Virus record (IMG/VR): IMGVR_UViG_3300042892_003674
Direction: 5' to 3' (one strand)
DNA length: 64,000 nt
From: a virus
Lineage: Duplodnaviria > Heunggongvirae > Uroviricota > Caudoviricetes
Of this stretch, positions 1,961 through 62,312 are shown piece after piece. The notes beneath the pieces were generated by a model. That model saw only the letters and a program-made list of their open reading frames with translations, did no database searches and had not been told where the DNA came from. The first letter of the stretch is position 1. Every line of letters begins with the position of its first letter. The translations under genes were made by a program, and so were the position numbers.

Positions 1961-4499
1961 ATGACAGACTTTAAAACATTAAAATTAGGTTTTGCACTAA
2001 CTGTTGGTATATACATTATACTAACTTCACCATTATTATTAAGCATTATGACGTATGACATCGATACCGGTCATTACTATGGACTTAGATATCCTTATTG
2101 GGTTATCTATACAATAGGTATTTTATCAGGAATCAGTGGAAATCTTTTGTCACGTAGTAAATACTTTAAACAATAATGGATAGGTTAGATTTAACCGAAG
2201 AATTTATATCATTGGGATTTGAACCAAAATATCTAATTTATAAAGACGGTACTTGGATAAAAAAAATAAATGATAAAAGTAAAATTATCTGTTACTTCTC
2301 TAATAAAGATTGGGAGCCCGCTAATTATCTTATCATCGAGTCAGTACAAACTTATATGAGAAAGGATGATCCTAATAAGTTTATCAAGTTCTCTGGTACA
2401 ATAAACAAATCAGAGGATTTATCATACCTATTATCAATGATAATATAATGATTAAATCTATCAATAAATTAGATGTACCAGATGGTAAATATTATGGAGT
2501 ATACTCATCTGATAACATACGTTTATATGAAATATTAGTAAAAGAATTTATCTATATAAACGCGGATAAACAAGATGTTATCATAGAATTTAAAGTTGAT
2601 ATAGCAATTAAATCAATGGGTACAAAAGTTCCGGTAGATATAATTGATGGGTGGGCTTATATAAATATCTCATTACAGGAAACAAGAGAACTAAAATTAA
2701 ATATAATAACTAAATAAAAAATTATGAGTGAATTAGTAAACGTAGGTAAAACAATGAAATCAACATTTGAACAAATTTCTGCTCAAGGATTCCTTGATCA
2801 ATTCCCAGATTCAGAATTTAGAAATGAATCTCAATTCTCTGGTATGGGTGATGTTTTTATCAAAAGTGAATTGGTAGAATCATTTAACCAATTAAAGGAA
2901 CAAATGATTGAAACTAACGGTAGTTTCCCTATTCTATAAAATTGTCAGTTAAAAAACAATTCATTACCTGGATACTAACGTGGACAACCTTTATATGGCT
3001 AAGATGGATCAAAAGAGGATAGATTTAATATGTGTTGATAATACTGACTATGATGGGTTTTTAACCTTACATAAATGGTATAAAGGTGAACTATCACATA
3101 GTTATCTACCTACATTAGAAATAGATAATTACTTTTATAGTAACCTATCTAATGATAGAGGTGGTAGTAAAGATGTATACCAAACTAAAGTATTTATGAC
3201 AAAACAACAATGGAGAGATTCTAAAATAGAAAAGATATTAAATGGATAAATACTATCAATGTGGTAGATGTGGTGGTTCGGTCGCAGTAAACTATGACAG
3301 TGCAATATGTACTTTACCAGTAACACACCGAACATCCGGAATATGTTCAGGTAGTATATCTATGGAAATTACAGAAGCAGATTATAACCAAGTAAGATCA
3401 CAATGGAGATCTGCAACTCGTAGAACAAAAATAAAAAAAGTAATTAAAGATGTTTAGAAATCCGTTTAGAAAGAAAAATACTGAATTTAGTGGAGGATTA
3501 AGATGGGGACAACTTGTTAGACCAAGTATGAACTTAAAGAATTACGACCGTATGAGAAAAATAAATCGATTACTCGGTAGAATAGAACTTACTAAATCTA
3601 CAGGACTTATGCCAATGAAACAAGAATATTGGATTTATTCAATAAGTTAAAATATATCCTTATAAAAAATAAATTAGATGATACTAGTATGTATAAACCC
3701 ATCAGATAGACTTACCAAAGGTAAAAAATATGAAGCAAAACCCTTCATCAGTGAACATTCATATAATCTTTTGAAGGTTAAAGATGATACTGGTGAATTT
3801 TATATGTATAGTATAAATAGATTCATTACAGTAGAAGAATGGAAAAATAAGCTTAGAAAAATGTTAGATAAAAAGAAGATATGTTAAAAGAAATAATGTC
3901 GTTTAGTAAAGAATTCTTAGATTATTATGATCTGAATGATCTAACTATGACTAATAGTTCCAATAATTTTACAAACTGGGAAAAAGTAAATCTCGGCTTT
4001 CCCGATAGAAATTATACTCAACATCTTATCCGTATTATTGATAATAGTCCTGGTACTGAAACCTATATTTATAAACCATATAACTTAAATATTTATAAAG
4101 ATAGATTGGTTAGTTTTCTTCAAAACTTTACTACAGAGTTTGAAGTAGAAAAAGAACCGGCTTTAATAACCATCTACTCTCACAAACAAGGTAGTTTAGT
4201 GAAAACACTTTATTTTGATTTAAAAGCATTTAGTAATACATCAATTACAGAACCAATAGATTATATCGAATTGAAACTGATACAAAATAATGAAAATTAA
4301 ATGTATTAAAAATCATGATAGTGTAGGTAAATTAAAAGGATTAAGAACAGATACCTATTATCAAGTAACTGATATAGATATGATTGGATATCGAATAATC
4401 GATGATTTAGGTAGGAATTTTTGGTTCACCAAAGATCGTTTTGAACCAATTGAAGAAACAAGAGATAGATTACTAAATAAACTAATAAACAATTTATAA
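1961..4499 (+). other. operon of about 10 small hypothetical ORFs, several with family B C-terminal tag
   Basis: Overlapping stop/start codons. Ends include TRELKLNII (2448), WRDSKIEKIL (2980), TRDRLLNKLI (4290). Confidence 0.7.
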
Positions 4500-4685
4500 T
4501 ATAATGATAAATTACATTTTCCGAAAATTAGGTTTCATAGTGTCAGACTCCGGTCTATTACTAACAACCAATAAATTTTCTAAACAAATTGCAGAAATGG
4601 CAGTTCGTGACGGTTCTCTACAAAAGAAATATGAAAATCTATACACGAAATCTAAACAACGTAACAATTAAAACAAATATAAATT

Positions 4686-4979
4686 ATGTCAGAACAAACA
4701 GAAACAACACAAAAAACAATCGCAGTATTCGCAACTGAGTATTATGAAACATCTATCACTAGAGAACCTATTGAATTAAACATCGAAGATTATCCAGAAT
4801 TAGAAGGTATGACACCAGAAGAAGCAATTGACTATGTTGAGTCTAATGCTTGGGAGATGCCATCAACAAATCCAGATATGTATGAATCATTGGCAGAAGA
4901 ACTTAATGATCAAGATATACGTAGAGATAAAATTACAAATGAGTCTCAAGAAATCAACGCTCAATTAGAAATGTTCTAA
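4686..4979 (+). CDS. highly acidic protein, paralog of 8972..9301
   Basis: ATEYY..EPIELNIEDYPELEG..EEAIDYVESN versus ATEYF..EPVELDSDLFPDFEG..QEFFDYISEN. Confidence 0.7.
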   Translation: MSEQTETTQKTIAVFATEYYETSITREPIELNIEDYPELEGMTPEEAIDYVESNAWEMPSTNPDMYESLAEELNDQDIRRDKITNESQEINAQLEMF

Positions 4980-5201
4980 TAATGGAAAAATATGAAAAAC
5001 AAATAAAAGGTTTTTTATTAGGATTTTTTATAGGTGGAATATTTGGTATTATTGTCTTAGATTTAGTTCAAAAAGGTATAATTTAATGTAACAAGAGATT
5101 GTTAAAAATAAAATCACTGGTGATGAAACAGAAGTTCTTACTGACTAAGAAAAAATTTACCTACATTTAATTTTTATATATATAACAAAAAAGTAAAAAT
5201 T

Positions 5202-6266
5202 ATGTCAACAGAAACAAATTCAAACGCATCCGTAAATCAAAGTGCTGAGGTTCACTCAGACAAAGACTCCGCAGGAGTATCTTATACAAATACAGTCGAA
5301 GCTGGGGTTAGTGTAACAACTGGTAACGATAACGCTTCAGTTACCGCAGGAGCATCAGTAAAAACAGGAACCGAAGCATCTGCAGAAGCTGGGTTAGATG
5401 GTAATAATGCTTATGCACAAGCTTCTTACTCAGATACAACCGAAGCTCACGTTACAGTAGAAGCTCAAGCAAATACAAATGGAGTAGGAGTATCAGCAGG
5501 AGCAGATGCTTATATAGTATCCGGTAACACAGCAGAAGGTCACGTATCAGTAGGTGATAAAGGTGTAGATGTTGGTGGTGGAGTTTCCACCGGAACTGCA
5601 GTAGGTGTAGATGCGACAGGTACAGTAGATTTAAGAGAAGGATCAGTTACCGCAGGAGCAGGAGTTTCAGTTGGAGATCAATTCGCAGTAGGTGGTGGAG
5701 GTCAAGCAACATTTGATGATGGTGTAGCAACTATCGGAGTTGAAGGTGATCTTGCCGCTTATGTAGGATTAGATGTGGATTTATCAGTAAGTATTGATAC
5801 AAACCAAATTGCTAAAGATGCAGAGGCCACTGCTAAAGCAGCAGATGAGGCAGCAGCGGCTACTAAAAAGGCGGCAGATGAGGCAGCAGCGGCTACTAAA
5901 AAGGCGGCAGATGATGCAGCTAAAGCAACACAAAAGGCAGCAGATGATGCGGCTAAAGAAGCAGAGAAAGCAGCGAATGATGCTGCAAACTTGGCAAAAG
6001 ATACAGGTAAGTCAATATCTAATAGTGCTAAAAAAACTGGTAAATCAATTAAGAAAGCTTTCTCTGATCGTAGAGTAAAAGAAAATATTACTTTAGTTGG
6101 TATAGTAAGTGATTTGAATATATATGAGTATAATTATATATGGTCTAAAGAAAAACAAACTGGAGTAATGGCACAAGAACTATTGAATACAAAATATGCT
6201 GATGCAGTATCAACAGATGAAAAGTCAGGATACTATATGGTAGATTATTCTAAATTACCTTTGTAG
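5202..6266 (+). CDS. fibre/spike-like protein with C-terminal peptidase S74 (intramolecular chaperone) domain
   Basis: G/A/V-rich beta repeats, an Ala/Lys coiled coil, then SDRRVKENI...YEYNY...GVMAQEL...VDYSKL. Confidence 0.75.
   Translation: MSTETNSNASVNQSAEVHSDKDSAGVSYTNTVEAGVSVTTGNDNASVTAGASVKTGTEASAEAGLDGNNAYAQASYSDTTEAHVTVEAQANTNGVGVSAGADAYIVSGNTAEGHVSVGDKGVDVGGGVSTGTAVGVDATGTVDLREGSVTAGAGVSVGDQFAVGGGGQATFDDGVATIGVEGDLAAYVGLDVDLSVSIDTNQIAKDAEATAKAADEAAAATKKAADEAAAATKKAADDAAKATQKAADDAAKEAEKAANDAANLAKDTGKSISNSAKKTGKSIKKAFSDRRVKENITLVGIVSDLNIYEYNYIWSKEKQTGVMAQELLNTKYADAVSTDEKSGYYMVDYSKLPL
5841..5972 (+). repeat. 33-bp (11-aa) tandem repeat, 4 copies
   Basis: gcagatgaggcagcagcggctactaaaaaggcg twice exactly, plus 2 diverged copies. 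Confidence 0.85.
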
Positions 6267-6267
6267 T

Positions 6268-7491: not shown

Positions 7492-7516
7492 TAACACCAA
7501 AACTTTAAGAATAAAT

Positions 7517-7936: not shown

Positions 7937-8242
7937 ATTTTATATCACTCATGACCAAATATATCTTTTATTTTGAACATTCTTCTAATAGCTCGCATAC
8001 GTGAATCGAGTTCGGCCCAATCTTTTTCGGTCCAATCTAATTGTCCAAAATCTAAATCAACAGTTATCATATAACTATATATTACTTTTCTACCTCAACA
8101 TCAAACCAATCACCTTGTAAAAAATAAGGTGTGTCTTTTAATAACTCTGTTGCTGATTTACATTTATCACACCAATCATCTGAATTAGTGTGAACACATA
8201 CCACTTTCTCGTGCAAAGGATTCCACGTTACATATACTTTAC

Positions 8243-8452
8243 TCATTTTATATATTTTCTAATAAATTTTGTCTGGTTCTTATTTAAGACTAAGATATAC
8301 TTATTACCCATAGCAGTTTGATAGACTTGGTATCTTTCACCTTGGTCTGAGTAGTACCAATAATCAGTATAACTATAATTTTGTAATCTTAGTTCTGCGG
8401 GTTTACAACTAAAAAGAAGTAAAATGGTAAGTAATGTTATTATTTTTCTCAT
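8243..8452 (-). CDS. small lipoprotein
   Basis: Lipobox LLFSC. Confidence 0.6.
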   Translation of the reverse strand: MRKIITLLTILLLFSCKPAELRLQNYSYTDYWYYSDQGERYQVYQTAMGNKYILVLNKNQTKFIRKYIK

Positions 8453-8971
8453 TTGCTATTTAATAAAAGGTTTAATCTTTTTTGACGAATCTTTGCTACG
8501 TCAATAGTATATTGTGCATGATGAATAATATCTTCACCAAAAGGTACATTTTTCTTTAAAGTTATATTCACTTTGATACCTTCTTCTCCATTAGAAGGTA
8601 TACCAAAAACATCGGCTTTATATACCTTCACAATACTCATATGCATATTTTTAGTTCTACTATGGAAAAAGTTTATTATATTTTCAGTTATTCCGTGCTG
8701 TAGTAATATCGGTTCTATCTCCATCTATAATTTTATTTAATTGTTTATCTCTCCACTGTTCTAAATGCTCAAAAAAATCTAAAGATACTGTAAAAACCTC
8801 TCTATCATGAATATAACAATTCCATAAGTCCCAAGAGTTATCATCAGTATATAAAATACGTTCCATATCATATATTTTACCAACCTGTAATCTATTTTCG
8901 ACGAATGTCTCACCATCAATCTCACGTGTATTTTTTATACAAATAACCTTTTGTTTATTGGTGAGATTCAC
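8449..8971 (-). other. two family B tagged small proteins (8449..8724, 8684..8971)
   Basis: IRQKRLNLLL; WRDKQLNKII. Confidence 0.65.
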
Positions 8972-9301
8972 TTAGTATCCAGTTGTAAGTTCAACTTCAA
9001 AACCACCAGTCTTATGCCAAGTTTCATTAGGTTGACCCATTTGAATATCACCTTCATATCCCTTAGTACAAGAATTAAAGTAATCAAACTTCTCACCTTC
9101 AATAAGTGTCCAAAGTGCATCTCTTACCTCTTCTGGTAAAGATTCATCCTCTGCTAAGTCATTATAATTCTCTGATATGTAATCAAAAAATTCTTGCTCT
9201 GTTTCTCCCTCAAAATCCGGGAATAAATCACTGTCTAATTCAACTGGTTCAGTCGCTGCGTGAATAGTAAAATACTCTGTTGCTCTAAAATGTTTTTTCA
9301 T
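8972..9301 (-). CDS. highly acidic protein, paralog of 4686..4979
   Basis: Shared ATEY/EPVEL/FEG/DYI motifs. Confidence 0.7.
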   Translation of the reverse strand: MKKHFRATEYFTIHAATEPVELDSDLFPDFEGETEQEFFDYISENYNDLAEDESLPEEVRDALWTLIEGEKFDYFNSCTKGYEGDIQMGQPNETWHKTGGFEVELTTGY

Positions 9302-9318
9302 ATTTTTCGTTTTTATTT

Positions 9319-9747
9319 TTAATTTGGGAAAACTTCTATAGTTCTCTCTTGTTTAACAAGATCACTCCAAACACCCTCATATCTAGTTCCTTTTACAATA
9401 TGATTGTCTACCCAATGATAGTTACCACCTCTTGGTTTACCCATAAGTAATCCATGATATTTATAGCCCCACTTATTTAACCAATCTTCAGTTACTTCTC
9501 TATGCTCTTCTGTTCTAGAAGTAAAGAATGTAATCACATGTCCTTCATCATACCACTTATTTAAAGTTTCTACCGAACCGTGATACGGTAAAACTACCGA
9601 CATACGTTCCGGTTCTTCATTAGGTACATCATCTGTAATAGTTCCATCAATGTCTATCAGATAATTTTTAACACCCACCGGTAATTGTGGACTAGCTAAA
9701 TGACCCTCATCATCTAGTATTGATCTTAATTCTATTTCTTTTTTCAT
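9319..9747 (-). CDS. HAD-superfamily phosphatase
   Basis: LIDIDGTI, FFTSR, MGKP motifs. Confidence 0.8.
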   Translation of the reverse strand: MKKEIELRSILDDEGHLASPQLPVGVKNYLIDIDGTITDDVPNEEPERMSVVLPYHGSVETLNKWYDEGHVITFFTSRTEEHREVTEDWLNKWGYKYHGLLMGKPRGGNYHWVDNHIVKGTRYEGVWSDLVKQERTIEVFPN

Positions 9748-10114
9748 TTATTCGTTTTTATTTTATTCATGAAGAGATTCATTATCTTAATCTTTCTTAC
9801 ACTAGATCGTAATATACTATGTCTAGTAATTGGACTCCATTTTCCTGATGTTTTTTGATACATTCCTTTAAATATTTTTCCAGTATTCAATTATACCTAT
9901 AGAGAATATCTTTCTAATTTTATGTTTTCTTAGTCTAGCTCGAAGTATATTTCTCCATTTATTTTTACCCATTGAAAATTCGTCTAATCTTGTGTTTACG
10001 TTCTAAACCTCTCATAGTAATCCAAGGTTGTCTAAAAGTTCCATAAGGAAATGATGTAATAATAACCTTTGGATTATCAGTCACGACATCAGCACTGATA
10101 ATATAATTACTCAT
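9744..10114 (-). other. three basic microproteins (9965..10114, 9868..9972, 9744..9863)
   Basis: Closely packed 49/34/39-aa ORFs below the track cutoff, with ERKHKIRRIF, LRKHKIRKIF, VRKIKIMNLF. Confidence 0.6.
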
Positions 10115-13630: not shown

Positions 13631-13699
13631 ATAAATATATATTATTTTTATTTTACACTTTTTTATCCTATCTTTGTGAAACAAATAAAAATATAAAAA

Positions 13700-14194: not shown

Positions 14195-15278
14195 ATGTGT
14201 CTTAAACCATGCCGTGAATGTCCATGGGTTGTTAGAAATCAATTCAATGATATGATTATAAAACACTCAAAACAATATGACAAACCACACAATTGTCATA
14301 TGATACCAACCGAGAAAAGAGGTGATCTGTGGGATACAAAAGAAAAAACAAAATGTGTGGGTAGAAAACAATATGAACATGATAGTAATTAGAGATAAAT
14401 CAATAAAAACCTTAACAAAATGCGAACCTTTCATCGATGTAATCACCGATGAAACGGCTATCGCCTTTGAAAAACATGAAGAAGATTATCCGAAATCTTC
14501 TGACCAAATAAAAAATGGCTTAACCAAACAAGATAACCAATACTACTACTTTGAACACGACATCGTAAATACTCCTAAAACCTATTCATCTAGATACTAT
14601 GATAGTTGCTTTGCGTATAATGTTTATCCTATCACCGATAATATAGCAAATCGTATTATTAAAAAAGAATATGTATCTAAATGGGAAATACTGTTCGATT
14701 CTTTTCTTAACTATAAAAAGATTTATAGTATGATAAAAGATTATAGTCTTAGTTTATCATATATCACTTCTTATATGTTAGATGATAAACTAGTAATTCC
14801 TTATGGTATATCACCAAGTGATATGGGTGATGAGGAAATAACAATAGAAGCTTACCTTACTAAAAATAATAAAAAATACGCTTCGTTTAATAAACAATTA
14901 GATATAAATCTAACCGTTCTAAGAGAAATGAAACTTAACGAATTAAATATAGATTAAATGAAAGAATACATACTATGTGCTGCTATCTGGTACAAAGAAA
15001 TACCACTAAAGAAAGAAATACCTCAAGTTCTACCAAAAAACTGTGATAAAGGCTTAGTTGTTCTAGGACATCGTCATGGTCAATGTATGTGGACTATGAG
15101 TTGTTTAACCGGATTAAGAAGTGTTACAAACGCTTTGGATGGTGTTGGTGAATATGAACAAGGGTTCTTAACCAATACTAATAGATTTGTTGATAGAAAA
15201 GAAGGTGGTCAGATAGCATTTAATGCAGGTCAGACTCAAGAGTTAAAAACGACTTTATACTCGGAAGATTTATACTAA
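14195..15278 (+). other. three hypothetical ORFs (14195..14392 Cys-rich, ~14376..14957 family B tag, 14958..15278)
   Basis: PCRECPW; LREMKLNEL; ILCAAIWY..QGFLTNTNRFVDR. Confidence 0.65.
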
Positions 15279-15299
15279 AAAATTATAAAATAATATAAT

Positions 15300-15671
15300 A
15301 TGAACATAGCAATCATTGCACACGACAACAAGAAAGCAGACATGGTCGCTTTCGTTATGAAACGATTAAAATACTTTAAAAGTAAAGACGTTAAATTATA
15401 TGCTACTGGCACAACCGGTTCTCATATTAAACACGCCGGAGGATTAGAAGTAGAATGTTTAAAATCTGGACCTTTAGGTGGTGATGCACAAATCGCTGCA
15501 CTTTTAGTAGAAGGTAAAATCGATATGATTCTATTCTTTATCGACCCTATGTTTTCACACCCTCACTCAGTAGATATACATATGCTTATGAGATTGTGTA
15601 ATGTATATGATATACCACTAGCAACAAACTATGCAACTGCGTCTAGACTAATTGAAAGAGAAACACTATAA
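15300..15671 (+). CDS. mgsA: methylglyoxal synthase
   Basis: IAIIAHDNKK, YATGTTG, SGPLGGDAQI, FFIDP..HPH.VDI..LMRLCNVYDIPLATN. Confidence 0.95.
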   Translation: MNIAIIAHDNKKADMVAFVMKRLKYFKSKDVKLYATGTTGSHIKHAGGLEVECLKSGPLGGDAQIAALLVEGKIDMILFFIDPMFSHPHSVDIHMLMRLCNVYDIPLATNYATASRLIERETL

Positions 15672-15676
15672 TAAAC

Positions 15677-16510
15677 ATGACGACAGAAGAAAGAATAAAA
15701 CAAGAGTTTGAATCACTTAAAGGTCAGTTCGTAATCACACAAAGTCATAAAATCGAAAGATTAATAGCGATAGGTGAAGACGAACACGACTTGTATTGGG
15801 TAACGTATGATGGTAGAAAACTAACATGGAATACCTGTGTAGGTCGTTTAATGCCACTGAAAGGTTATCTACGTGATAAAGATTATAATGAGTTAGTTCG
15901 TTCAGCTACATTAAACCATTTTGACCAAGAAACTTGTTGGGGTAAACAAGGTGATAACTCACATATTCATAAGAATGAACTTTTAAAAGTAAGTGGAACA
16001 GATAAATTTCTAGCTGACTTATGTTGGGACTTAAATTAAAATTCGTATCTTTATACCTATGGAAAATAAACACATTATAAATAACTATATCTATATCACT
16101 AACGATGAAGATATAAAGGTGGGAGATTGGGTTCTCGATGAAGATGGTATACTTAAATGTACTGCTCATGCAGGTTCGATGAATCACTACTTTAGTAAAA
16201 TCATAGCAACAAATGACCCAAAACTTATCTTAGATGGAATTAAATCTATATGAAATTCAAAGTAGGAGACATAGTTTATAAAAGCTATACAGGTGAAGGT
16301 GATTATTTAAAATCAATAGACTCTTATGTACCAATGACTATTGAAGCAATTGATAGTGATTGGAGAGGTGGACACCAATTCTATAACTGTGCTTGGTTTG
16401 AAGATAATGAATTAAAAAGAGCCAGTTTTATTGAATGGTATCTGGAAGACCAAGAAACAAATTTTAAACGAATAAATAGAGAACAAAAATTAAAACAACT
16501 AGGAATATAA
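15677..16510 (+). other. three small ORFs; 16250..16510 is YodC/DUF2158-like with family B tag
   Basis: FKVGDIV..PMTI..CAWF..NREQKLKQLGI. Confidence 0.6.
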
Positions 16511-16527
16511 ACAAATAAAATAAACAT

Positions 16528-17216
16528 ATGAAAAAACTAATCTTATTACTACTTGCTATCACAGCAACATCTTGTGATCTATTCGCACCAGATAAACCAA
16601 CTGAACCTATACAAGTAACCACAAAAAACCATAGTGCTAAAAGTATTGAATACATCATTGGTGAATTACACACCACTGGTCGTAGCGTTGGTTTATATAA
16701 AGTAACCTTACAAGACGGTAAGGAAATACTTCTATATAATGATTCCAGAGGTATAGCAATGATTCAACTTAAATAAAAAATATAAATATGAAAAAACTAA
16801 TCCTATTACTAGTAACAATTTTACTTTTAACTTCATGTCAATTTACACCTTATACAGATAGACATACAAAAAAAATTCCTTTACGCCAACTTGTCAAAAG
16901 TGAGACAAAGGAAAGCTATTCATCCGCATCATTCTTTTTGATTGCAGGATCCGCTAGTTCTGGTACTTATACCAATACTGATGTAAAAGCTATGGGAGCC
17001 GTTGATGGAGAATATAGATATTTACAGATGGACTTTCAGAAGGTACGTATCAAACTTGATAATACCATTAAGATACCTTATGTGATTATCAATTATAATA
17101 ATGATCATGAAAATGATATAAACTACTTATTAGAGTATGAATATAATATAGATAGTTATACAATCGTTTGTCCTGAAAACTACTTACCAGAACACTTATT
17201 ACCAATTCAATTATAA
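16528..17216 (+). other. two tandem lipoproteins (16528..16776, 16788..17216)
   Basis: Both begin MKKLILLL and carry a TSC lipobox. Confidence 0.7.
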
Positions 17217-17226
17217 TTAAAACAAT

Positions 17227-17725
17227 ATGAAGTACAAAATTTATTTAAACCAGTATGTAACCGCACAGGTTAGAGTTGAGTTTGAAATCGAATCAGACCT
17301 AGCATTAGAAGACCTACAAGAAGAAATCTATGAAGCAACAGAAGATTGGTCTAGATTGGCTAGATTTAGCCCAGAATTAGAAGAATTCCCAGGAACTTAT
17401 GTCAAAGATTCATATAAGTATGACTTAGACTATCAAGGTGATGATGGTGATGAAATCGATGTTTATGTAGAAGAAGTAGAACAAACAGAAGAAAACTAAT
17501 ATGAGAAAATTTTACTATGTAGTCGACATCGCGGTAGAAGATTACGGTGATGATGTTTTAGAATGTACCGGTAGCAAACTTGTTACCATATACGAAATCA
17601 TTGATAATGAACCAAAACAACTTGAACTATTAGGGCTATCATTAGAAGATGATTCCCAGCAAGAAGCTCAAGATTATTTAGATACAACCTTTGAAGATGA
17701 AGTCTTCGAACTAAGACGTTTGTAA
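17227..17725 (+). other. two very acidic small proteins
   Basis: D/E-rich 90-aa and 74-aa ORFs. Confidence 0.65.
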
Positions 17726-20700
17726 TGAAATATGTTAAGTCTATCAATCCTTTGGGAGTCAATCTAACGTATCAAAAAGTATATGAAGTAATACGTTTCT
17801 TTACATCAGATTGGAGTAAGCTAACATACCACGTAATAATAAATGACTTAGGTGATGAAACTACATATGATGATTTATGGTTTGAAGATGTGACAGCAGA
17901 GGTAAGAGAAAGTAAAATAAATCAGATTTTAGATGAAAGTAGTGTGTGTTAAAGAATGTTCGTATTCATTCAACCATTTAGATTATTATTTCAATATAGG
18001 TGACCAATTTGAATTGTCAAAAATTCAACCTGGTATTACTTTTTTTGATACACAAAAAATATGGAACTCACCTAAAAATAAAATAAGTATCGTAATAAAT
18101 TTCATTGATGGTAAAGATTATACCGTTACTGTATTACAAGAAGATTTTATATCTTTACCAGAATGGAGAAATAAACAATTAAATTTGATACTAGATGAAA
18201 ATAATATGTATAAATAATTCAGAAATAATAAACGGTCCTATTGAATTATTAACCATAAATAAAATCTATGAAGCTATAAAAGTTAGCCAAGACCAATATT
18301 ATATCAAAGACAACTCTGGTGAAGAAAGATGGTATAATTATAATAGATTCAAAGATATGGCTATTGTCAGACAAGAAAAATTAAAACAAATAGGAATATG
18401 ATTAAGTGGATAAAAAGTAAATTCGGAAAAACTGAAAAACAAAAGTTTGATAGTTTTTTAAAAGATTTAGTCAAAGAAAGAAAAGAAGCTCTTAATCCTC
18501 ATCAACGAGGTACTCGTGATACAGGACCAAGATGAATAGTAACATGGACCGATTTAAGATGGATAGATTTAATATAGGAGATAACGTAGTAATAACCAAA
18601 AGGATATGTAACATCAAAGATGTAAAAGGTGTTGTATGTCATATTGGGAAAAGCTTCTATGGGGTTAAACACGGTCGTCCTAACTCTTCTGGTACATGTA
18701 ACATCTTTATAAACCACTCAGACGAGACTATAGAATTAGATATACAACAGCAAAGACATGATAAAATAAATAAGATATTAAATGACTGAGAAAGAAAAAG
18801 ATGATTATATCATAATGATAAATCAATCAGTTGATACTGGTCGTGAAGCACTTTGTATAGATAATAAAGACGTAGAAACTTGGCTAACAAAAGGAAAAAG
18901 ATATAAAGTTTACTCTCACCATATGAACCCTTCTATTCGAGTTATAACCGATCAAGGAACTAACAACTCGTTCTCTAGTGAAAGATTTCAAAGCTTACAA
19001 GATACGAGAGAAGAAAAATTAAAACAATTAGGAATATGAAACTAATATGTATAAATAACTCTTCGTTAGAAGAAGGATATATAGCTCCTATAACACCAGG
19101 AAAGATTTATGAAACTGAACCTAATAATGACATCAATTTAAACTATTTAGTAATGAATGATGCTAGTTTTAAAAGCTGGGAACTAAAGGAAAACTTTATT
19201 ACCTTAAAAGAGTATAGACAACAAAAATTGAAAGAATTGGGTATATGAGATATAAAGATAAAGCCACAATAAAACAAGTAACTAATCATCAGAATAAACC
19301 TGAGACTGAGTACTATGGTCAAAATATGACTAATCGTCAAAGAGAAAGAATGAGAGAACGTTTTCTAAAAGAATTTAGAACAATGATACCAGATAAAATC
19401 TGGTGGGATAGTTTAAATGATAATGATAAAACAGAAGTCGCTCACGAATATAAAAAATTCAAAGATGGTTCAAATAACTTGAAAGAATTAGTTAAACAAT
19501 TTCCTGGTGATATTGTTTATATAAGAGATAAAAAAATTGATGTGTTAGGACTATGAAGAAAATGTTTAAATGTATTGATAAAGGTAGTTATCACCTAACT
19601 CCAGGTAAAAATTATCTTATCTCACTAAATATAGGTAAATCTAGTTTAGGTATGCATCACACTTTATATAATGACATAGGGAAACAACACCTTGTATTTG
19701 AAGATGAACTAAATAACCTATTCATTGATATAGAAAAGATACGAGAAGAAAAATTAAATGAATTAGGTATATGAAAATAATATGTATTAAAAATACTAAA
19801 AGTGTTTCCACCAATGGACATCCAGGTTATGTAGACCAAAAGTATTTTAAAGTAGGTGAAAAATATGATGCTCAAGATGATTATCCAACTGGTAAACAAC
19901 ATTACTTTGTAATACATCATAATGGTTCTAATTATTCTGTATACCGAAGAGACTTCACTACAGTAGAGAACTGGAGAAATAAACAATTAAATGAACTTGG
20001 TATATGAAAGTTAAATGTATAAATACAAGTATGCTTATGGGTGGACCAACTAGACCACTAACCACTGGTAAAATATATGATGTTATCTCAACTAAAATGC
20101 CAGTTGAAATTGAAGGTGATGGATCAATCCTTATCAAAGGTGATGATGATGAAGAACGATGGTATAGTTTAGAAAGATTTGAAGATGTCACCGCAGAAGT
20201 AAGAGAACAAAAATTAAATGATTTAGGAATATGATACTACAAATACTTATCCCATCGATAATAATATCCACTTTAATTTTATTCACGACCTGTGAGATAG
20301 TAAATATAAGTGTGTTCAAACAGTACAATAAAGATAAATCTATATTAGACTTCTATCGTTTTGTTAGATTGTTTAAGGTGGATAGTATCGATTTATCATA
20401 TTCTTTAAGAGGTCCTGTTATTGATAGTTGTTACTACCATATCAAAATACTTGATGAAGATAAAGTTATTTTATTCAAGTGTAGTTTAACAAATAGAATA
20501 AATACCGTATATTTGATAGATTGTAAAGATGATAAACAAAAAGAAGTTAAGTATGAACTACCATTAGGTCGAGCTAGCTGGCTTCTATCATATAGAATGA
20601 ATAAGATCGAAAAATATATGGAACTATCAAAATTAGAACATATCAAAGCAGAAGAGTTAAATAAAGAAGTAAATAAACATCTTACTACCTATAATAGAGA

Positions 20701-41901: not shown

Positions 41902-43032
41902 ATGATAAAAAAAATTGTATGTATTTCTAAAGAACATAATGGTAGTATATATAATGGAGTTATTGTTGGCGAAATATACGATATAGTAGAATACCTACCT
42001 ACTGTTGCACCAAATGGTAGATTTAGAATAAAAGGTAAATTAGAAGGGATAGAATATTCTTCTGGTATAAAAACAATTGATCTTTTCCCAAAAGAACTAT
42101 TTATTACCTTACAACAATGGAGAGAACAACAATTAAATAAGATTGGAATATGACACTAAAAGAATATATCGAACAACTACAAAAGTTCGCCGAAATGAAC
42201 CCCGAAACATTAGATATGGATGTTATCTACTCACGCGATGATGAAGGTAATGGATTCCAACAAGTTCATTATGCACCATCCAAAGGTAACTATGAAGATA
42301 TGGAGTTCCAAGAAGGTGATGAAGATGTAAATGCGGTTTGTATAAATTAAATAATATGGAAGAAATAGAAAACGTTTACAAAATTATACATGATGAAACC
42401 TATAATAACCAGGTTCTTCTTGATATAGAACTTAGTAAAATTAGTGATCAAAAACTAGTAGTAGGTATGTTATGTGACCTTTATGCCAAAGAAGGTTATA
42501 AAGCAGATAAAGACGCAATGATATTAAGTATGAGAAACTACTGTGATATAGAACACCTTAATCTACAAGAATGTAATGCTTACTTTATTGATAAAATGAA
42601 AGAATATAGATCAACTAAAGTAAAGGCACCAAGCGCTGATAAACTTAAACAATTTTTATCTATTCTTCAATTAAGTATGAAACAAGCAGTTGATGGTCAT
42701 GTTACCCTACCTGAAAATAAAGAGTATGTTGACTTTGTTAAAGAACTATCCAATGATGAATTTGAATTCTTCAAAAATATCCTAATTGGTCAAGAACTAT
42801 ATGAAGAAGTAACTAATATGATAAACATCAGATTGTAATGGCAACTACTAGAAAAACACCACAGCGAGTTTTCTGTGAAGATACCTCAACCCTTCTCAAA
42901 ACAATACGTTCTCATAAAGAACACGGTAAAACAAAGGTTATAAATGGGATAACGTATGAGATTATAGGTGGTGATATGTTATTTAATACAAAAACAAATA
43001 GAATAGAACAAGTTAAAAGTTTAGAAAGATAA
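41902..43032 (+). other. four small hypothetical ORFs, first with family B tag
   Basis: WREQQLNKIGI; YSRDDEGNGF motif in 42150. Confidence 0.65.
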
Positions 43033-46339: not shown

Positions 46340-46560
46340 TATTTTCTTTCTATATATATTCTAAATAATGCGAAAAGTTATCCACAATCGCAAATAAATG
46401 TAATGACCTTGAAAAGGTTTTTGGAACAACCTTACAAACACGAATAGGATCAACTAAAAATTTGTATAAAAAACGACCGGATTTTATACACTTTTGGTAA
46501 TTACACTTATTTTCACTATATTTAGGTAACTTCACGATACTATACTAATATAATGTAAAT
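46340..46560. other. candidate replication origin region
   Basis: Strand skew switch, TTATCCACA at 46378-46386, 28-bp site at 46463, divergent genes. Confidence 0.5.
46463..46490. repeat. 28-bp palindromic site, copy 5
   Basis: TGTATAAAAAA-CGACCG-GATTTTATACA. Confidence 0.85.
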
Positions 46561-46682
46561 GGATGATAAAAATATTGATAAAGTATGTACTGTTTTGGCT
46601 ACTCGAAAGTGTATGACTTTATATGGTTTTTACAGAAGTATAAGTAAGAATATGGTAAGATATGTTTTAAGACAAGCTAAGA

Positions 46683-47111
46683 TTGTTTCAATATTTAAAG
46701 AGAGATTTGATTATGAAGAGTAATAAGAATTATCATAAGGATATGATAGAAAGTATAAAAGATTATACAAAGCATTATACTATAATAAGAGGTTATTGTG
46801 ATGTTTTTATAGATCCTAACAGAACACTTGTTCCACTTTATAGTGTTACTAATAATGACTATTGGATTGTGTTGGGTAATTTATCTGATGAGGCAATCGA
46901 TGATTTATTTGAGGATAGTTCTTTTAGTGATGAGGATGGTATTGAACGAGAAGGTTGTTATGAGTATTCGGCTTGTTTGTATTATTCTTCTGGTAGTTGG
47001 GATGAGCAATCAGAAAGTTACATTGATTATATAGATTTTAATTTTGTGGAGACTTTTGAGAGTAGGGATCGAGATAAGAAGTTGAATGAGTTATTGGGTT
47101 TTGATTTTTAG
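46683..47111 (+). CDS. acidic protein with family B tag (start probably ~46713)
   Basis: RDKKLNELLG. Confidence 0.7.
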   Translation: MFQYLKRDLIMKSNKNYHKDMIESIKDYTKHYTIIRGYCDVFIDPNRTLVPLYSVTNNDYWIVLGNLSDEAIDDLFEDSSFSDEDGIEREGCYEYSACLYYSSGSWDEQSESYIDYIDFNFVETFESRDRDKKLNELLGFDF

Positions 47112-47716
47112 TTTAGATTCCAGTCTATAGGTGTTATATTATTCTGTAATAGATATTGATTAGTTTTACTAAAGTGTTTATTATTGAACCATTTCCCTTG
47201 GTTGGCGGATAGGGGTGATGGATGGCCAGACTTGAGTATAAGGTGTTTTGTGCTATCGATTAGTTTTTCTGTTTTGTGAGCTTGTGAACCCCATAGAATG
47301 AATACGAGGTTTTCTTTATTATTATTTAGTTCTGATATAATATTATTGGTAAATTGTTCCCATCCTTTATTCTTATGTGAGTTGGGTTGGTTCTTTCTTA
47401 CTGTTAGTATTGTATTAAGAAGTAGTACACCTTGGTTATGCCAATGAGTTAGATTCCCGTGAGATGGTATTGTGATGTTTAAGTCGTTATTAAGTTCTTT
47501 AAAGATGTTTTTCAGAGAAGGTGGAATAGTTGTATCTAGGGTGGAGAAAGCTAGACCGTGAGCTTGGTTTTCACCGTGGTACGGGTCTTGACCTATGATG
47601 ATTACTTTAGTGTTATTAAGGTTGGTTAGTGCGTTAAGTATTAAATCTTTAGGTGGGAAGCATTGGTGTTGGGAATATTCTTTATCTATGAATTTTTTTA
47701 ATTCGGATGGTATCAT
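47108..47716 (-). CDS. ung: uracil-DNA glycosylase, family 1
   Basis: GQDPYH, HGLAFS, PPSLKNI, GVLLLN, HPSPLS. Confidence 0.97.
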   Translation of the reverse strand: MIPSELKKFIDKEYSQHQCFPPKDLILNALTNLNNTKVIIIGQDPYHGENQAHGLAFSTLDTTIPPSLKNIFKELNNDLNITIPSHGNLTHWHNQGVLLLNTILTVRKNQPNSHKNKGWEQFTNNIISELNNNKENLVFILWGSQAHKTEKLIDSTKHLILKSGHPSPLSANQGKWFNNKHFSKTNQYLLQNNITPIDWNLN

Positions 47717-48000
47717 GACAGGAGTAATTTTATTCTAAAGTTTCTTATTGTTTGTTTATCTGCTTTGGCAAGTTCTAGTGCGTATAGTAGTGCGCTTTCG
47801 TATGTTGGTAGTGTTATTTCGTTATTTGTGCCGTAGCCGCCGCATATAGCTGTTCCTAGTTGGTGTGTTACGGTACAGGAGTATCGGTTACCTTTGTGTG
47901 TAGTATCGTAGAAAGCATCAATTTCGATGGTTGTGTATTGGTCTAGTTGTATTGTTTCTATTATATTTTTGGTATAGTACTTTGATTTTGGTAATTTCAT
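47713..48000 (-). CDS. hypothetical protein, tag-like C-terminus
   Basis: TYESAL..AL; IRNFRIKLLLS. Confidence 0.6.
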   Translation of the reverse strand: MKLPKSKYYTKNIIETIQLDQYTTIEIDAFYDTTHKGNRYSCTVTHQLGTAICGGYGTNNEITLPTYESALLYALELAKADKQTIRNFRIKLLLS

Positions 48001-56200: not shown

Positions 56201-59200
56201 AGAGTTATAGTTTGAATACAACTTGGAATGATAATAAAGGTTCGATTACTATTCGTCAGGAACAAGAGTGGAGAAACTTTTCTTATGAGAAGTTTATGAG
56301 GGTTGTTGATAATTGGTATGAAGATGATGATGAGATAAGATATATTGAAATAATATTAGATAATAAATGAAACACTTAAAAAAATACAATGAAGCGGTTG
56401 GTGGTGTGAATGGAGTTAATGATTTCTGTGAGGGTTACTTAGCAAATATTTTAGATGATGATTCTTATCAGTTTAATGTAACAGAGCAAATGTCTGGCCA
56501 TAGGGTATCACCATCGTATTATTTTAGTTTATACAAAGTAGGTAATGGTGCATATGATATAATTCAGTGGGATGAGATTAAGGATCAGATTATACCATTT
56601 TTACATATGTTGATAAGAGAGTATAGTATTGAACCTATGAGACTTATAGATCAATCGAAGCTAACCTATCAAACAAAAAACGTTTATATAGATGATAATC
56701 CTAGAAACAGAACGATTCAGTTTAACAGGTATTTACCGGATACTTATAGTTCTGATCTTTATTATATGGATGTGAGGAATGTTATAAAGGACGAGGATGT
56801 TCCTGAAAAATTCTATCGAATACAATTACAATTTTACTAATATAATATATAGTTCTATGAAATACTTAAAACCATTTAACGAAGCCGTAACACAAGACGA
56901 CATTGAATTATGTTGTGTTGATTTATTTGATGATGGATTTGAATTAAATGGTTATAATAAGACTGGTAAAACAATAATTCAGTTAGTGAAGAATATTACT
57001 TCTTCATTACCAGACGATCAATCTAATATAGTTGTAGTTGATGAACATTCAAAGAATTATAGACAAGGTACAATAACTATATCAGGTAGAAATTTTGATC
57101 ACGTTATTGCAAAAGAAAGATCTAGTGATCTACCATTTACTGAGAATGAGAATAAACTTATAAGTCAAGTTAGTGATGCTGCAAATCTATTGAGACATTA
57201 TAGTAGTACTAATGGTGGGACTGATCGTGTTGTTATTACTATAACAAGTAGAGGAATACAGAATCCTATGAACTTTGAATATGAAAGATACTTAACACAA
57301 ATAAATATATTATTCTATATATGAGATACTTAAAAGGGTTTAATGAAGCTATTGAACAAGACAACATTGATTTATGTTGTGTTGATTTATATGATGATGG
57401 ATTTCAGTTACTAGGTTATAACAAGACTGGTAATACCTTGATTTCATTACAGAAGAAAATAGTTAGTCAATTAGATCAGTGGGATGGTCACACAGGAACA
57501 GATACTAGAGCAGGAGTTATGTGGGATGAACATTTAAGTAAGTATCAACCGGGAACTATTACTATTACTGGTGATAATTTTGATAAGGTTGAAACTAGTT
57601 TTAGACAAACTTGTGGTTGGGATAGAACTAGACCATTACCATTTACTGATGATGAGAATAAACTTATAAATCAAGTTACTGATGCGGCTAGTATATTGAC
57701 ACATTATAGTGATACTGAGGTAAAAAGAAAAAGAGTTGAAATACAAATTTCTAGTAGAGGTTTACAAAATCCTATGAACTTTGAATATGATAAATACTTA
57801 ACAATATTAAAGGTAACATTCTTCTTATGAGATACTTAAAGAGATTTAATGAGGCAATTGAACCAGATGAGATAAAAGACTTCTGTGAGCAGTATCTAGC
57901 TTATTTGTTAGATGATGGTTATGCTTTAGCTTTTAGAGAATCTGGTAGAATAACTCAAGTAGACTTTGTTAAACCAAAGGAAAATCCTTTACACGGTAGA
58001 TGGAGTCCTGGTTTTGGTGGACCGGTTGATTGGATGGATTGGGATCATATAAAAGATAGTTTTATTCCTTTTTTAAAGATGTTAGATAAGGAGTATGATG
58101 TTAAGGATAATCTTATAACTTTTCAATGTCCTAGCGCGATACAAATTCAAATATCTTTTCAGGATGTTATTGATGATAAAGTAAAAGATATACTTCATGA
58201 CAAACTTACATTAGATGCTAGAGATAGAATTAGTTCTGTTAGAATAAATGTTATCGATCATAGTGTTAAGGATTATGCTTGGCAGGTTAAAGAAGCTAAA
58301 GAAGATTGGAGAAGAAACTTCAGTGATGATGAGTTACAAGAAGTTTGTGATACATTTTTACCTTATCTTTATGATGAGGGTTTTGTTGTACACACCACGG
58401 TGCCTACTTATTTTATGTTTAAGAAAAACATTATTACACTTTGGAAAGAACAAGAAAAAGGTGATGGTCGAGGATTAGAGACTCTTCCATTTTATTGGCA
58501 TGAGATAAAAGATAGATTTCTACCACTTTTTGATTATTTGAATAAGAATTATCCGTTGGGTAAGGTTAGATTGGTTCATTATTATAATTCTTGGGAAAGA
58601 AAAGAGAACAAGAAAGAAGTGGTTTTTAAATCGGATAATGATAAAGAATCTTGGAGTGGACTTCCATTTAGTAAGTTTGAGGAGATTATGTCGAGAGATG
58701 CCGCTTATAGAAGACCAATGAAGATTGGTGAGATAATAATAGAAGTACAAAATTTAGATGAGTTATGAGATATATAAAGTTATTTGAGGGTTTTAAAGAT
58801 GATTTACTTGGATTTACTCAGGACCGCTTAGCTTATCTTATGGATGATGGATTTGATCTTACAACAAATGACACACAGAATGGTTACTGGCGTGAATATA
58901 ATGTTGATTGTGGAAAAATTTCAATAGTTAAACGTTCAGGTTTCACTTGGGAGGAAATTACTGATAGATTCTCACCGTATATTTATATGTTGAATAAAGA
59001 ATATAGTATTTTAGAAATAGTATTTCATCAGAGTGGTGGAAGACAACAACAATATGATACTAGAAAAGATATAGAAGAACTTGTAAGTGGTGAATCGGAT
59101 CAGTATCTTACCAATAAGTTGTATTGGATGATAACAATAATAGTAAACAAATGAGATATATAAAATTATTTGAAGTATTTGATAGATGGTCAAGAGATCA

Positions 59201-60596: not shown

Positions 60597-60653
60597 ATTA
60601 GATACAAATATAGTGATAAAATTATAATATATATAATAAAAAATTATATTATT

Positions 60654-61337: not shown

Positions 61338-61400
61338 ATATCATTTTTTTTGTGAGTATGTATATTTTTTCTTATATTTGTAAAACAAAACAAAAACATT

Positions 61401-61595
61401 ATGGACTTATCTTTCTTCTTTTTATGTGCTGCTGCGGTAGCTATTGTTTATCTTAGACGTGACAAGTGTCTTCACAATTGGGAAGACAAGAGCGTGGAGA
61501 ATACGGTTGGTTTAGGTGAATCAAAATATAAAGTCATTCGTCAGAAGTGTACTAAGTGTGGAAAAAATAACATTGAAAAATTCCATATAAACTAA
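61401..61595 (+). CDS. small membrane-anchored Zn-finger-like protein
   Basis: TM segment plus CLHNW..CTKC; similar pattern in 37209..37424 and an ORF near 894..1052. Confidence 0.55.
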   Translation: MDLSFFFLCAAAVAIVYLRRDKCLHNWEDKSVENTVGLGESKYKVIRQKCTKCGKNNIEKFHIN

Positions 61596-61656
61596 AAACA
61601 TGTAACATCATGATATATAACTAATAATAAATAAATGTCGGGTTTTTTCTCGACAT

Positions 61657-62312
61657 TTATTGTTTAATTAGTTGACTGATTTTTTTATCTCGTTGTTTAA
61701 TAGTTTGTATCATTTCATGAATTTTCTCAAAATTATATTCGTAATGGTTATCAAACTTTAAATCTTTGCCATAATAAACTCTTATTGCCCAGTCGTAATC
61801 TTCATCATAAACTCTTATTAGAAGAACAAGTGGTTTACCGTATTGGTCTTTATAGATTTCACAATCTCTTGTTTCTTTACAATAAGAAACAATTGTTGCT
61901 TTATTATCATTTACCCAATTATCTTTTTCAAGTTTTGTCATATTCCTAATTGTTTGAGTTTTCTTTCTCTTTCTAATTCTATGAAGTTTTTTAGTAAAAA
62001 AGGATACTTTTTAATATATTTTGTTTCTAAAATCTCATTCGCTTCTATATCTTTATGAAGAAGTAAATTTAGAGATCTGCATATTTCAGTTTTCCATTTT
62101 GGATCTTGTATGTGACCCCACGGAGTTTCTGCAGTTAGTACTCTTCTTAAATATGTAAATCTTTTATTAGTACAACCAGGATAAGTAACTACACGAATAT
62201 ATTCAGCGATTTGAATACCGAATAGTAATTTTATATTACGAATGTATATTACATCTAAAGGGAATGTGGCTCTAGAGTCTGACTTTTTAGTTTTCCATTT
62301 AGAATTTATCAT
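61657..62312 (-). other. two family B tagged ORFs
   Basis: RERKLKQLGI; RDKKISQLIK. Confidence 0.7.

Follow-up and report, generated by a model that had tools for sequence, protein, structure and literature searches.

A portable C-terminal peptide on dozens of small proteins of a huge-phage clade: conservation at the protein level and a possible docking role

Peptides located at the C-terminus are classic signals of AAA+ proteases, as exemplified by the ssrA tag, the MuA tail and the XB peptide of SspB, the latter of which binds the N-domain of ClpX. Here we describe a ten-residue peptide, hereafter the tag, located at or near the C-terminus of many small proteins encoded by a stretch of 64,000 nucleotides from an uncultured tailed phage (Caudoviricetes; IMG/VR record IMGVR_UViG_3300042892_003674), the whole of which is called the window below. 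Its consensus is R-[DE]-x-[KQ]-[LI]-[NK]-x-[LI]-[GL]-I. It ends 54 open reading frames (ORFs), the carriers, which lie between positions 2448 and 62312 and represent about one third of the genes on this stretch. Taken together, the data make it rather likely that the tag is a portable peptide, selected at the protein level, that docks small proteins onto one shared partner.

For the counts, the core of the tag was defined as R, any two residues, K/Q/R, L/I, any two residues, L/I/V and L/I/G/F. This pattern is found 51 times in the 162 ORFs called greedily in the window, and 43 of these 51 matches are within 10 residues of the C-terminus, compared with means of 1.35 matches overall and 0.17 near the end (maximum 2) in 500 residue shuffles. 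When unfiltered ORFs of at least 40 residues are considered, 50 end with the core pattern, including one likely false positive (57827-58768), and five others end with a relaxed form, leading to the 54 carriers. The original prediction, made from the nucleotide sequence of the window, had announced more than 40 carriers, and this figure is exceeded. The proteins that it had named also carry the tag: those starting at 21156, 32943, 36066 and 46683 end with it, and the Cys-rich protein at 20725 has a relaxed version. Three types of endings can be distinguished. In 21 carriers, G followed by I, L or V immediately precedes the stop codon; in 26, L or I is followed by 0 to 13 residues; the remaining seven have a basic variant, R-[KRM]-x-K-I-[KR]-x-I-[FL]. 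This variant, also present in relatives, is carried by putative ORFs of 40-75 residues, mostly on the minus strand; a separate count, centred on the clusters at 7945-10114 (-) and 44339-46163 (-), gives eight such ORFs.

A logo derived from 391 distinct tails (window, relatives and IMG/VR) shows R in 100% of the cases, D/E in 69%, K in 81% (Q in 10%) and N/K in 63%. The remaining columns are L/I after the K, L/I followed by L/G, and finally I or the end of the protein, so that positions 2 and 6 are the only free ones. Upstream of the tag, positions -10 to -1 hold less than 0.8 bit each. Because there is almost no information in this region, the conserved element is a ten-residue peptide, and the idea of a shared C-terminal domain was rejected. 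No Pfam or PHROG profile match reaches the last 12 residues of the carriers; the match of one of them to acyl carrier proteins (ACP) stops at residue 72-76 of 102. No description of the tag was found in full-text searches of the literature or in the accessible portion of a comparative paper on jumbo phages, and as far as this search shows the tag is undescribed.

The window is AT-rich (about 30% G+C), tightly filled with small genes, and has the appearance of accessory DNA from a very large phage. Within the phage collection, the public record closest to it is LR745206.1, which is unannotated and described as an 'uncultured phage' (634,780 bp). Few enzymes are common to both, with identities of 50-72%, and matches at E <1e-5 are found for 12 of 162 ORFs; some metagenome contigs are closer to the window than LR745206.1. 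Genome-wide tag counts were made on relatives of the window phage, and orthologue DNA was taken from related metagenome loci, such as L041 (Ga0181344_1000351, a contig of 18.5 kb) and L067. After the nine-residue core, 0-9 residues follow in LR745206.1 and 0-13 in the window, with variable endings (G-I, L-D, L-K, L-N). The carriers are listed below, with lengths in residues, the position of the tag and the type of body, together with two promoter-like boxes located upstream of carrier-rich operons.

2448-2717 (+), carrier, 89 residues, relaxed tag 2685-2714, other body
2980-3249 (+), carrier, 89 residues, tag 3214-3243, SH3-like family (by profile)
3242-3457 (+), carrier, 71 residues, basic variant 3419-3448, Cys-rich; tag kept in L041 orthologue
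4290-4499 (+), carrier, 69 residues, relaxed tag 4461-4490, SH3-like family
7945-8070 (-), putative mini-ORF, 41 residues, basic variant 7954-7983
8449-8724 (-), carrier, 91 residues, tag 8458-8487, kept in L041 and LR745206.1 orthologues
8684-8971 (-), carrier, 95 residues, tag 8723-8752 then 13 residues, SH3-like family
9744-9890 (-), putative mini-ORF, 48 residues, basic variant 9768-9797
9965-10114 (-), putative mini-ORF, 49 residues, basic variant 9971-10000
13669-13676 (+), TAnnTTTG box (Bacteroidota-type -7), consensus match only, 23 nt before 13700; heads a plus-strand run with 19 carriers, 14322-22763
14322-14957 (+), carrier, 211 residues, relaxed tag 14922-14951
16250-16510 (+), carrier, 86 residues, G-I-stop tag 16478-16507, weak DUF2158/YodC hint
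17725-17952 (+), carrier, 75 residues, tag 17905-17934, SH3-like family
17933-18217 (+), carrier, 94 residues, tag 18167-18196, SH3-like family
18195-18401 (+), carrier, 68 residues, G-I-stop tag 18369-18398, SH3-like family, ATGA overlap
18532-18789 (+), carrier, 85 residues, tag 18754-18783, other body
18782-19039 (+), carrier, 85 residues, G-I-stop tag 19007-19036, SH3-like family, ATGA overlap
19036-19248 (+), carrier, 70 residues, G-I-stop tag 19216-19245, SH3-like family, modelled
19245-19556 (+), carrier, 103 residues, G-L-stop tag 19524-19553, other body
19553-19774 (+), carrier, 73 residues, G-I-stop tag 19742-19771, SH3-like family
19771-20007 (+), carrier, 78 residues, G-I-stop tag 19975-20004, SH3-like family
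20004-20234 (+), carrier, 76 residues, G-I-stop tag 20202-20231, SH3-like family
20231-20728 (+), carrier, 165 residues, G-I-stop tag 20696-20725, N-terminal hydrophobic segment
20725-20940 (+), carrier, 71 residues, relaxed tag 20908-20937, Cys-rich; 73% DNA match in LR745206.1
20942-21154 (+), carrier, 70 residues, G-I-stop tag 21122-21151, SH3-like family
21156-21509 (+), carrier, 117 residues, tag 21477-21506, PHROG 3972 body; tag kept in L041 orthologue
21506-21820 (+), carrier, 104 residues, tag 21770-21799, other body
21817-22074 (+), carrier, 85 residues, tag 22015-22044 then 10 residues, SH3-like family
22031-22279 (+), carrier, 82 residues, G-I-stop tag 22247-22276, SH3-like family
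22276-22509 (+), carrier, 77 residues, G-I-stop tag 22477-22506, SH3-like family
22506-22763 (+), carrier, 85 residues, G-I-stop tag 22731-22760, other body
25355-25792 (+), carrier, 145 residues, tag 25760-25789, other body; orthologue in L067
25789-26019 (+), carrier, 76 residues, G-I-stop tag 25987-26016, SH3-like; L041 orthologue ends I-L-type
26016-26249 (+), carrier, 77 residues, tag 26217-26246, SH3-like family
32744-32941 (+), carrier, 65 residues, G-I-stop tag 32909-32938, other body
32943-33305 (+), carrier, 120 residues, tag 33276-33302 up to stop, other body
36066-36413 (+), carrier, 115 residues, tag 36384-36410 up to stop, other body
37149-37156 (+), TAnnTTTG box, consensus match only, 52 nt before 37209; heads operon 37209-39882 with 7 carriers
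37872-38180 (+), carrier, 102 residues, ACP-like, G-I-stop tag 38148-38177; modelled helix 89-99
38180-38611 (+), carrier, 143 residues, tag 38576-38605, other body
38601-38885 (+), carrier, 94 residues, two tandem tags (second 38853-38882), SH3-like family
38882-39106 (+), carrier, 74 residues, tag 39074-39103, SH3-like family
39049-39348 (+), carrier, 99 residues, tag 39310-39339, SH3-like family
39341-39610 (+), carrier, 89 residues, G-I-stop tag 39578-39607, SH3-like; orthologues end I-L type
39607-39882 (+), carrier, 91 residues, G-I-stop tag 39850-39879, SH3-like family
40199-40405 (+), carrier, 68 residues, G-V-stop tag 40373-40402, SH3-like family
41902-42153 (+), carrier, 83 residues, G-I-stop tag 42121-42150, SH3-like family
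45057-45428 (-), carrier, 123 residues, tag 45060-45089, other body
45701-45832 (-), putative mini-ORF, 43 residues, basic variant 45707-45736
45817-45939 (-), putative mini-ORF, 40 residues, basic variant 45832-45861
45936-46163 (-), carrier, 75 residues, basic variant 45939-45968 and an internal copy
46559-46723 (+), carrier, 54 residues, tag 46670-46699 then 8 residues
46683-47111 (+), carrier, 142 residues, tag 47070-47099 then 4 residues; LR745206.1 homologue tagged too
47713-48000 (-), carrier, 95 residues, tag 47716-47745, other body
61657-61941 (-), carrier, 94 residues, tag 61663-61692, other body
61938-62312 (-), carrier, 124 residues, G-I-stop tag 61941-61970, other body, ATGA overlap with 61657-61941

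The tag is conserved as a peptide, not as DNA. In the window, its K is encoded by AAA in 74% of the cases, which is the background value (74%), and its L is spread over five codons. Tags that have a residue in common at positions 3, 6, 7 or 8 share the corresponding codon at the frequency expected from codon usage. In 11 independent orthologue pairs, the proportions of synonymous (pS) and non-synonymous (pN) differences are 0.38 and 0.09 at four core positions, as compared to 0.42 and 0.15 in the bodies, and the free positions of the tag evolve fast. Among 27 orthologues of the ACP-like protein, with 63-92% identity, the residues I, R, K, L, N, L and I of the tag are invariant. When 36066-36413 is compared with a 98%-identical orthologue, the tags differ by two synonymous changes only. 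Moreover, orthologues exchange G-I-stop and I-L-type endings with the core residues kept, indicating that these endings are two forms of one tag. The reverse situation, in which DNA would be more conserved than protein, had been put forward as the outcome that speaks against a functional peptide; it was looked for, and both codon use and the pS and pN values place the conservation at the peptide level.

The ATA-TGA ending of G-I-stop tags is a distinct matter: it arises at the DNA level, as a side effect of closely packed genes and start-stop overlap. The last codon of these tags is ATA in 19 of 19 cases in the window, versus 46% in the background. In three genomes, an ATGA overlap with the next gene is found for 50% of the G-I-stop tags versus 9.5% of untagged genes. 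ATA before TGA is fixed because of these overlapping start and stop codons, and in G-I-stop tags without such an overlap the last codon is free (ATA 18, ATT 7, ATC 5). GGA is also used above background in G-I-stop tags. A Kozak-like A at position -3 was considered as the cause of this preference and dropped, GGA being found in 55% of the tags with and 45% of those without the ATGA overlap.

The tag is borne by different folds. Once deprived of their tails, the bodies of 43 carriers fall into 34 BLAST clusters. The largest group corresponds to the paralogues with the motif MKxxCI..LTxGKxY..DDxG that the original prediction had described as beta-barrel-like: 23 members align, and a profile search of tag-less bodies added others, so that the family accounts for 24 of the 54 carriers. 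An AlphaFold model of one of them, 19036-19248 (predicted local distance difference test, pLDDT, of 87), contains five strands followed by a C-terminal helix, residues 57-67. The top Foldseek matches of this barrel are all SH3 domains (probability 1.00, TM-score about 0.6, 56-57 aligned columns, E about 0.07), and a five-stranded barrel superposable on SH3 domains is the body of the 24 carriers. The other 30 carriers include the ACP-like protein, a membrane protein, a Cys-rich protein, a member of PHROG 3972 and many orphans. The membrane protein, 20231-20728, has one N-terminal hydrophobic segment, in agreement with its initial description as a transmembrane protein. For 16250-16510, the tag is present as announced, and the YodC-like body amounts to a weak DUF2158/YodC hint, with an E value of 0.02, below the cut-off.

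The ACP-like nature of 37872-38180, also anticipated, is borne out by a match to PF00550 over residues 23-72 of 102 (E 4.6e-5, 24 bits for a cut-off of 20.8), by a PHROG acyl carrier protein match (1.2e-10) and by the ACP structures that head its Foldseek list. However, the serine that receives the phosphopantetheine in working ACPs (D-S-L) is replaced by Asp (G-M-D-D-L-D) in 27 of 27 orthologues. The protein would therefore be ACP-like without being a working ACP, and its sequence suggests a non-acylated mimic rather than a carrier. A scan of IMG/VR with the ACP alignment matched tag patterns and no ACP relative. For neither the SH3-like nor the ACP-like model was there a Foldseek match with E <0.001; the folds were thus assigned from the consistency of the top matches, together with Pfam in the case of the ACP. 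In both models the tag is helical, with a pLDDT of about 90, and the last three residues are in coil, an arrangement compatible with glycine as C-cap and a hydrophobic residue after it. As a rule, carriers are short (median of 103 residues versus 145), and 94-98% of them have no hydrophobic segment. Among the 78 longer carriers of LR745206.1, two have a Pfam match and 76 have none, so that the bodies in this genome cannot be named.

Two carriers of the window contain two tags: a tandem pair ends 38601-38885, and 45936-46163 has an internal and a terminal basic variant. These two proteins look like read-through or fusion products.

The tag is a trait of one huge-phage clade, in which it has been retained though the bodies have diverged beyond recognition. 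In LR745206.1, a profile search with the tag finds 74 places, and the pattern assigns a tag to 127 of 975 ORFs, with 29 internal matches in 201,597 residues. In G002, a more distant IMG/VR genome (344 kb, 37% G+C), 73 of 503 ORFs are tagged. LR756508.1, an unrelated huge phage of 484 kb (40% G+C), has one tagged ORF out of 755, and no tag match was obtained in RaK2, Atu_ph07 and PA5oct. Tags were found in 20 of the 20 IMG/VR records tested, most of which share 60-90% identical proteins with LR745206.1. At the DNA level, the G-I-stop pattern was retrieved from 55 IMG/VR stretches versus one 3.5-kb contig of a metagenome-assembled genome in 596 Gb of prokaryote genomes. Some small phages also carry the tag. 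G022 (30,983 bp, direct terminal repeats, CheckV 100%) and its relatives G021, G023 and G024 have 1-3 tags each; two further genes of G022 end in D-L-G-I. G020 (36,771 bp, provirus, CheckV 100%) has 3-4 tags, in its non-structural region, and shares no protein with the huge phages; no AAA_3, AAA_5 or ClpP match was found in it.

The L041 contig joins orthologues of window genes coming from at least eight separate places (for instance 2176, 3242, 8449, 18398, 21156, 25789, 38180 and 53717), a mosaic that indicates intense shuffling of small-gene cassettes among relatives.

A second group of window proteins, family A, is characterized by an N-terminal leader, and the original prediction had presented the tag as its early counterpart. 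Two sequence boxes are relevant here. TAnnTTTG, the -7 element of Bacteroidota, precedes 1961, 13700, 33511, 36446, 41356 and 61401. TATATAA, which recalls the T4 late promoter, is located 5-30 nt ahead of the initiation codon in family A genes and in some larger ones (upstream of 30347, 40519, 40796, 41034, 48025, 53247, 60654, 5202 and others). Leaders sit behind TATATAA (p 2e-4 in the window, 1.4e-5 in LR745206.1), whereas in operons behind TAnnTTTG the tags are about twice as frequent and leaders are nearly absent. Neither box is present in most operons, and some carriers are behind TATATAA. Over the whole window TAnnTTTG is not enriched (105 versus 95.5 expected) and the two-box pattern is at chance level; when only intergenic, correctly oriented boxes are considered, the enrichment is about 2.5-fold. 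The statement that most carriers stand behind TAnnTTTG promoters does not withstand a strict test, with a box within 70 nt of the operon for 8 of 49 carriers; should 14322-22763 also be transcribed from the box at 13669, the number would rise to 27. In LR745206.1, the tag occurs alone in 126 ORFs and the leader alone in 64, whereas one dubious ORF has both (p 0.002). A similar near-exclusion is seen in the window (p 0.009) and in IMG/VR loci (p 0.006). Complementarity of tag and leader is thereby supported, whereas the word 'early' derives from consensus boxes alone and is, for the carriers, a reasonable but unproven label. By the same boxes, the clade probably infects Bacteroidota.

Two other elements of the window can be mentioned. 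A tRNA-like element of 102 nt, 32628-32729 (+), matches Rfam RF00005 with 37.5 bits and is directly 5' of the tagged 32744-32941; it is not called by ARAGORN, perhaps owing to an insertion. The box TATGTTTG occurs five times at 63423-63751, with a spacing of roughly 75-100 nt, within and past a gene-poor stretch of 965 nt (62562-63526), where no array is detected by Tandem Repeats Finder.

How could such a peptide work? In the docking model, the tag would be a two-to-three-turn helix, R-[DE]-x-[KQ]-[LI]-[NK]-x-[LI], closed either by G-I-stop, with the glycine as C-cap and a hydrophobic end, or by an extra L/I plus one to three residues. Placed on many unrelated, small and mostly soluble accessory proteins of the clade, it would dock all of them on one shared partner, as an address or an adaptor handle. 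Fast-evolving small binders or mimics, such as the SH3-like barrels, the serine-less ACP-like protein and Zn-ribbon-like proteins, would thereby act at one site. Portability, selection on the peptide and the variety of folds, all present in the original prediction, stand; the hub was there a guess among protease, clamp, membrane and phage compartment, and docking on one partner is the part that we infer. Since complete phages of about 31 and 37 kb carry the tag, the latter without AAA_3, AAA_5 and ClpP, the partner would more likely be a conserved host component than a machine specific to megaphages. Only positions 2 and 6, which form one narrow face of the helix, are free; the partner would thus contact most of the surface, including the R, D/E, K and N residues. 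The logo therefore points to a specific protein groove rather than to a lipid surface or a simple coiled coil.

Several points weigh against this proposal. The high pLDDT of the helix in both models means that it may pack on its own body. As 24 of the 54 carriers belong to one paralogue family, the helix could also be part of that fold. Each small phage has 1-4 tags, which gene transfer or co-infection with huge phages could explain. Finally, the host phylum is deduced from promoter boxes only.

Among the alternatives, the one that best survives, though distinctly less probable than the docking model, sees in the tag either a degron or the tether of an adaptor, read by an AAA+ protease: the phage ClpC-like unfoldase with ClpP, or the host Clp, Lon or FtsH. 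The carriers would then be removed in a timed manner, or would be adaptors delivering host targets. The position of the tag at or near the C-terminus and the solubility of the carriers are consistent with this view, as is the gene content of the clade. LR745206.1 and its near-complete relatives encode a double-AAA ClpC-like unfoldase of about 700 residues, with no N-domain, a short UVR-like linker and a V-G-F loop that, from its sequence, would be of the ClpP-docking type. One or two ClpP genes are present in the clade (E down to 1.9e-68), LR745206.1 having two paralogues; the ClpC-like and ClpP genes are at 423224-425290, 123568-124089 and 75197-75721 of this genome (loci L100 and L104). An unfoldase of the same type is also seen in RaK2-, PBECO4-, PA5oct- and Atu_ph07-like jumbo phages, often beside DnaJ. 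However, the ClpC-like gene is found in the tag-less RaK2, Atu_ph07 and PA5oct and in LR756508.1, and the tagged 37-kb phage has no AAA_5 or ClpP gene match. In addition, 0-13 residues follow the core, so that a free carboxylate at a fixed distance is unnecessary, and four conserved polar residues are atypical of known degrons.

As the ClpC-like gene occurs in tag-less phages and the MoxR-vWA pair in the tag-less Atu_ph07, neither of these ATPases tracks the tag. Phyletic profiling for a phage-encoded reader was not discriminating: of 176 ORFs conserved between LR745206.1 and G002, 153 are absent from LR756508.1, a list that is uninformative because this tag-less phage is too distant.

A broader scheme, which we regard as doubtful, would combine the two labels into a code by which the clade sorts its proteome. 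N-leaders would mark late virion cargo, and C-terminal tags would mark numerous small, rapidly evolving binders, among them the SH3-like barrels and the ACP mimic, which would be exchangeable adaptors plugged into one conserved host machine. This machine could be an unfoldase or a protease, to which each binder would bring its own host target. Such a code would be the prokaryotic analogue of the F-box/PRANC strategy of viruses, shared by small phages of the same hosts.

Slightly more doubtful still is the idea that the helix is a self-association handle, tags binding each other or the SH3-like barrels to form mixed oligomers or a condensate without any hub. Some SH3 domains do read R-x-x-K peptides, and SH3-like barrels, whose typical ligands are short peptides, are the commonest body here. 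The two doubly tagged proteins (38601-38885 and 45936-46163) would find a place in such assemblies, and no extra gene is needed, which fits the small phages. Conversely, a helix of two and a half turns in which R, D/E, K and N are conserved would make a poor coiled coil, and 1-4 carriers per small phage are few for a network.

A phage MoxR-type ATPase acting with a vWA-peptidase partner is an improbable reader. In its favour, a protein of about 390 residues with an AAA_5 match is encoded by LR745206.1 and all near-complete relatives, and a comparative study describes a MoxR-vWA-peptidase pair in group 2.2 jumbo phages, including Atu_ph07 (Iyer et al., 2021; PMC7824862). The AAA_5 proteins turned out to be core genes, one of them being the ClpC-like unfoldase. 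Yet Atu_ph07 has no tag, PF07726, the canonical MoxR family, has no match in 10 records, and the tagged 37-kb phage has no AAA_3 or AAA_5 match. Furthermore, the authors of that study assign the pair to virion assembly, whereas carriers are depleted among leader-type and TATATAA-box genes.

The notion that the tag is mainly a DNA feature, namely a 30-nt recombination linker or a translational-coupling signal with the peptide as a by-product, is a shade less probable again and is largely refuted. The invariant ATA, the excess of ATGA overlaps, the GGA preference and the heavily shuffled gene order between relatives could be cited in its support. Against it, synonymous sites change equally fast in tags and bodies, codons at conserved residues match the background, the last codon becomes free without the overlap, and orthologues swap endings with the core kept. 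A membrane-targeting amphipathic helix of the MinD/FtsA type has the least to recommend it. The tag is indeed a short C-terminal helix in which hydrophobic residues occupy i, i+3/4 and i+5. However, these number three or four only, position 1 conserves an acidic residue and position 5 Asn or Lys, and the net charge is about 0 to +1. That just two positions vary points to a partner gripping most of the helix surface rather than to lipid, and a membrane segment is already present in some carriers.

In huge phages, small genes without assigned function number in the hundreds. Should a docking handle be common to between one in seven and one in three of them, a single peptide pull-down could name the cellular site of the whole class, and the reader of the tag, if it exists as proposed, would give simultaneous access to dozens of orphan proteins. 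As a marker, the tag distinguishes accessory proteins whose genes are enriched behind host-type boxes from those with the leader, and it flags members of the clade in metagenomes. Being common to small phages, it may also point to a conserved and vulnerable hub of Bacteroidota.

Comparison with known systems helps to situate the tag, which resembles short linear docking motifs but departs, in the defining features of sequence or position that could be compared, from each of its closest analogues. Like the C-terminal peptides of AAA+ proteases considered at the outset, it is short, terminal and transferable among unrelated proteins; those peptides are read by one machine. It differs from them by an unrelated sequence, a helical conformation, four conserved polar residues and its presence, encoded in the genes themselves, on 13-30% of the proteome. 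An ssrA-type end, with a L-A-A-COOH-like carboxylate in a fixed position, is not what the tag displays, given the residues that follow the core and their variety. Clamp-binding motifs (Q-L-[SD]-L-F or Q-L-x-L-x-L, the gp45-binding tails of T4, the PIP box) are likewise short, often C-terminal and shared by many carriers, all of which they dock on a single ring. In a minority of tags the sequence is Q-L-N-K-[IL]-G-I, with a superficial likeness to the clamp-type Q-L-x-L-G-L. However, the key residues of the tag are the invariant R and the K that is only occasionally replaced by Q, the spacing is longer by one residue, the tag is predicted to be helical whereas the clamp motif is extended, and the carriers are no replication proteins; the logo departs from the bacterial clamp-binding consensus. 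It departs also from the broad hydrophobic face with basic flanks that defines MinD/FtsA amphipathic helices, in which no particular polar residues are needed.

The capsid targeting sequence of T4 (IPI-III, Alt) is another short phage address peptide placed on unrelated proteins. It is N-terminal and cleaved by the prohead protease, whereas the tag is C-terminal, has no cleavage motif and is almost never found together with the N-leader; the leader of family A is a better candidate for a role of this type. Finally, poxvirus ankyrin proteins with a PRANC/F-box-like C-terminus also associate many variable binders with one common C-terminal handle, which in their case plugs into a host machine. 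Their handle folds as a domain, about 40-50 residues long, and has Skp1 as partner, whereas the tag is a peptide of ten residues in a prokaryotic setting.

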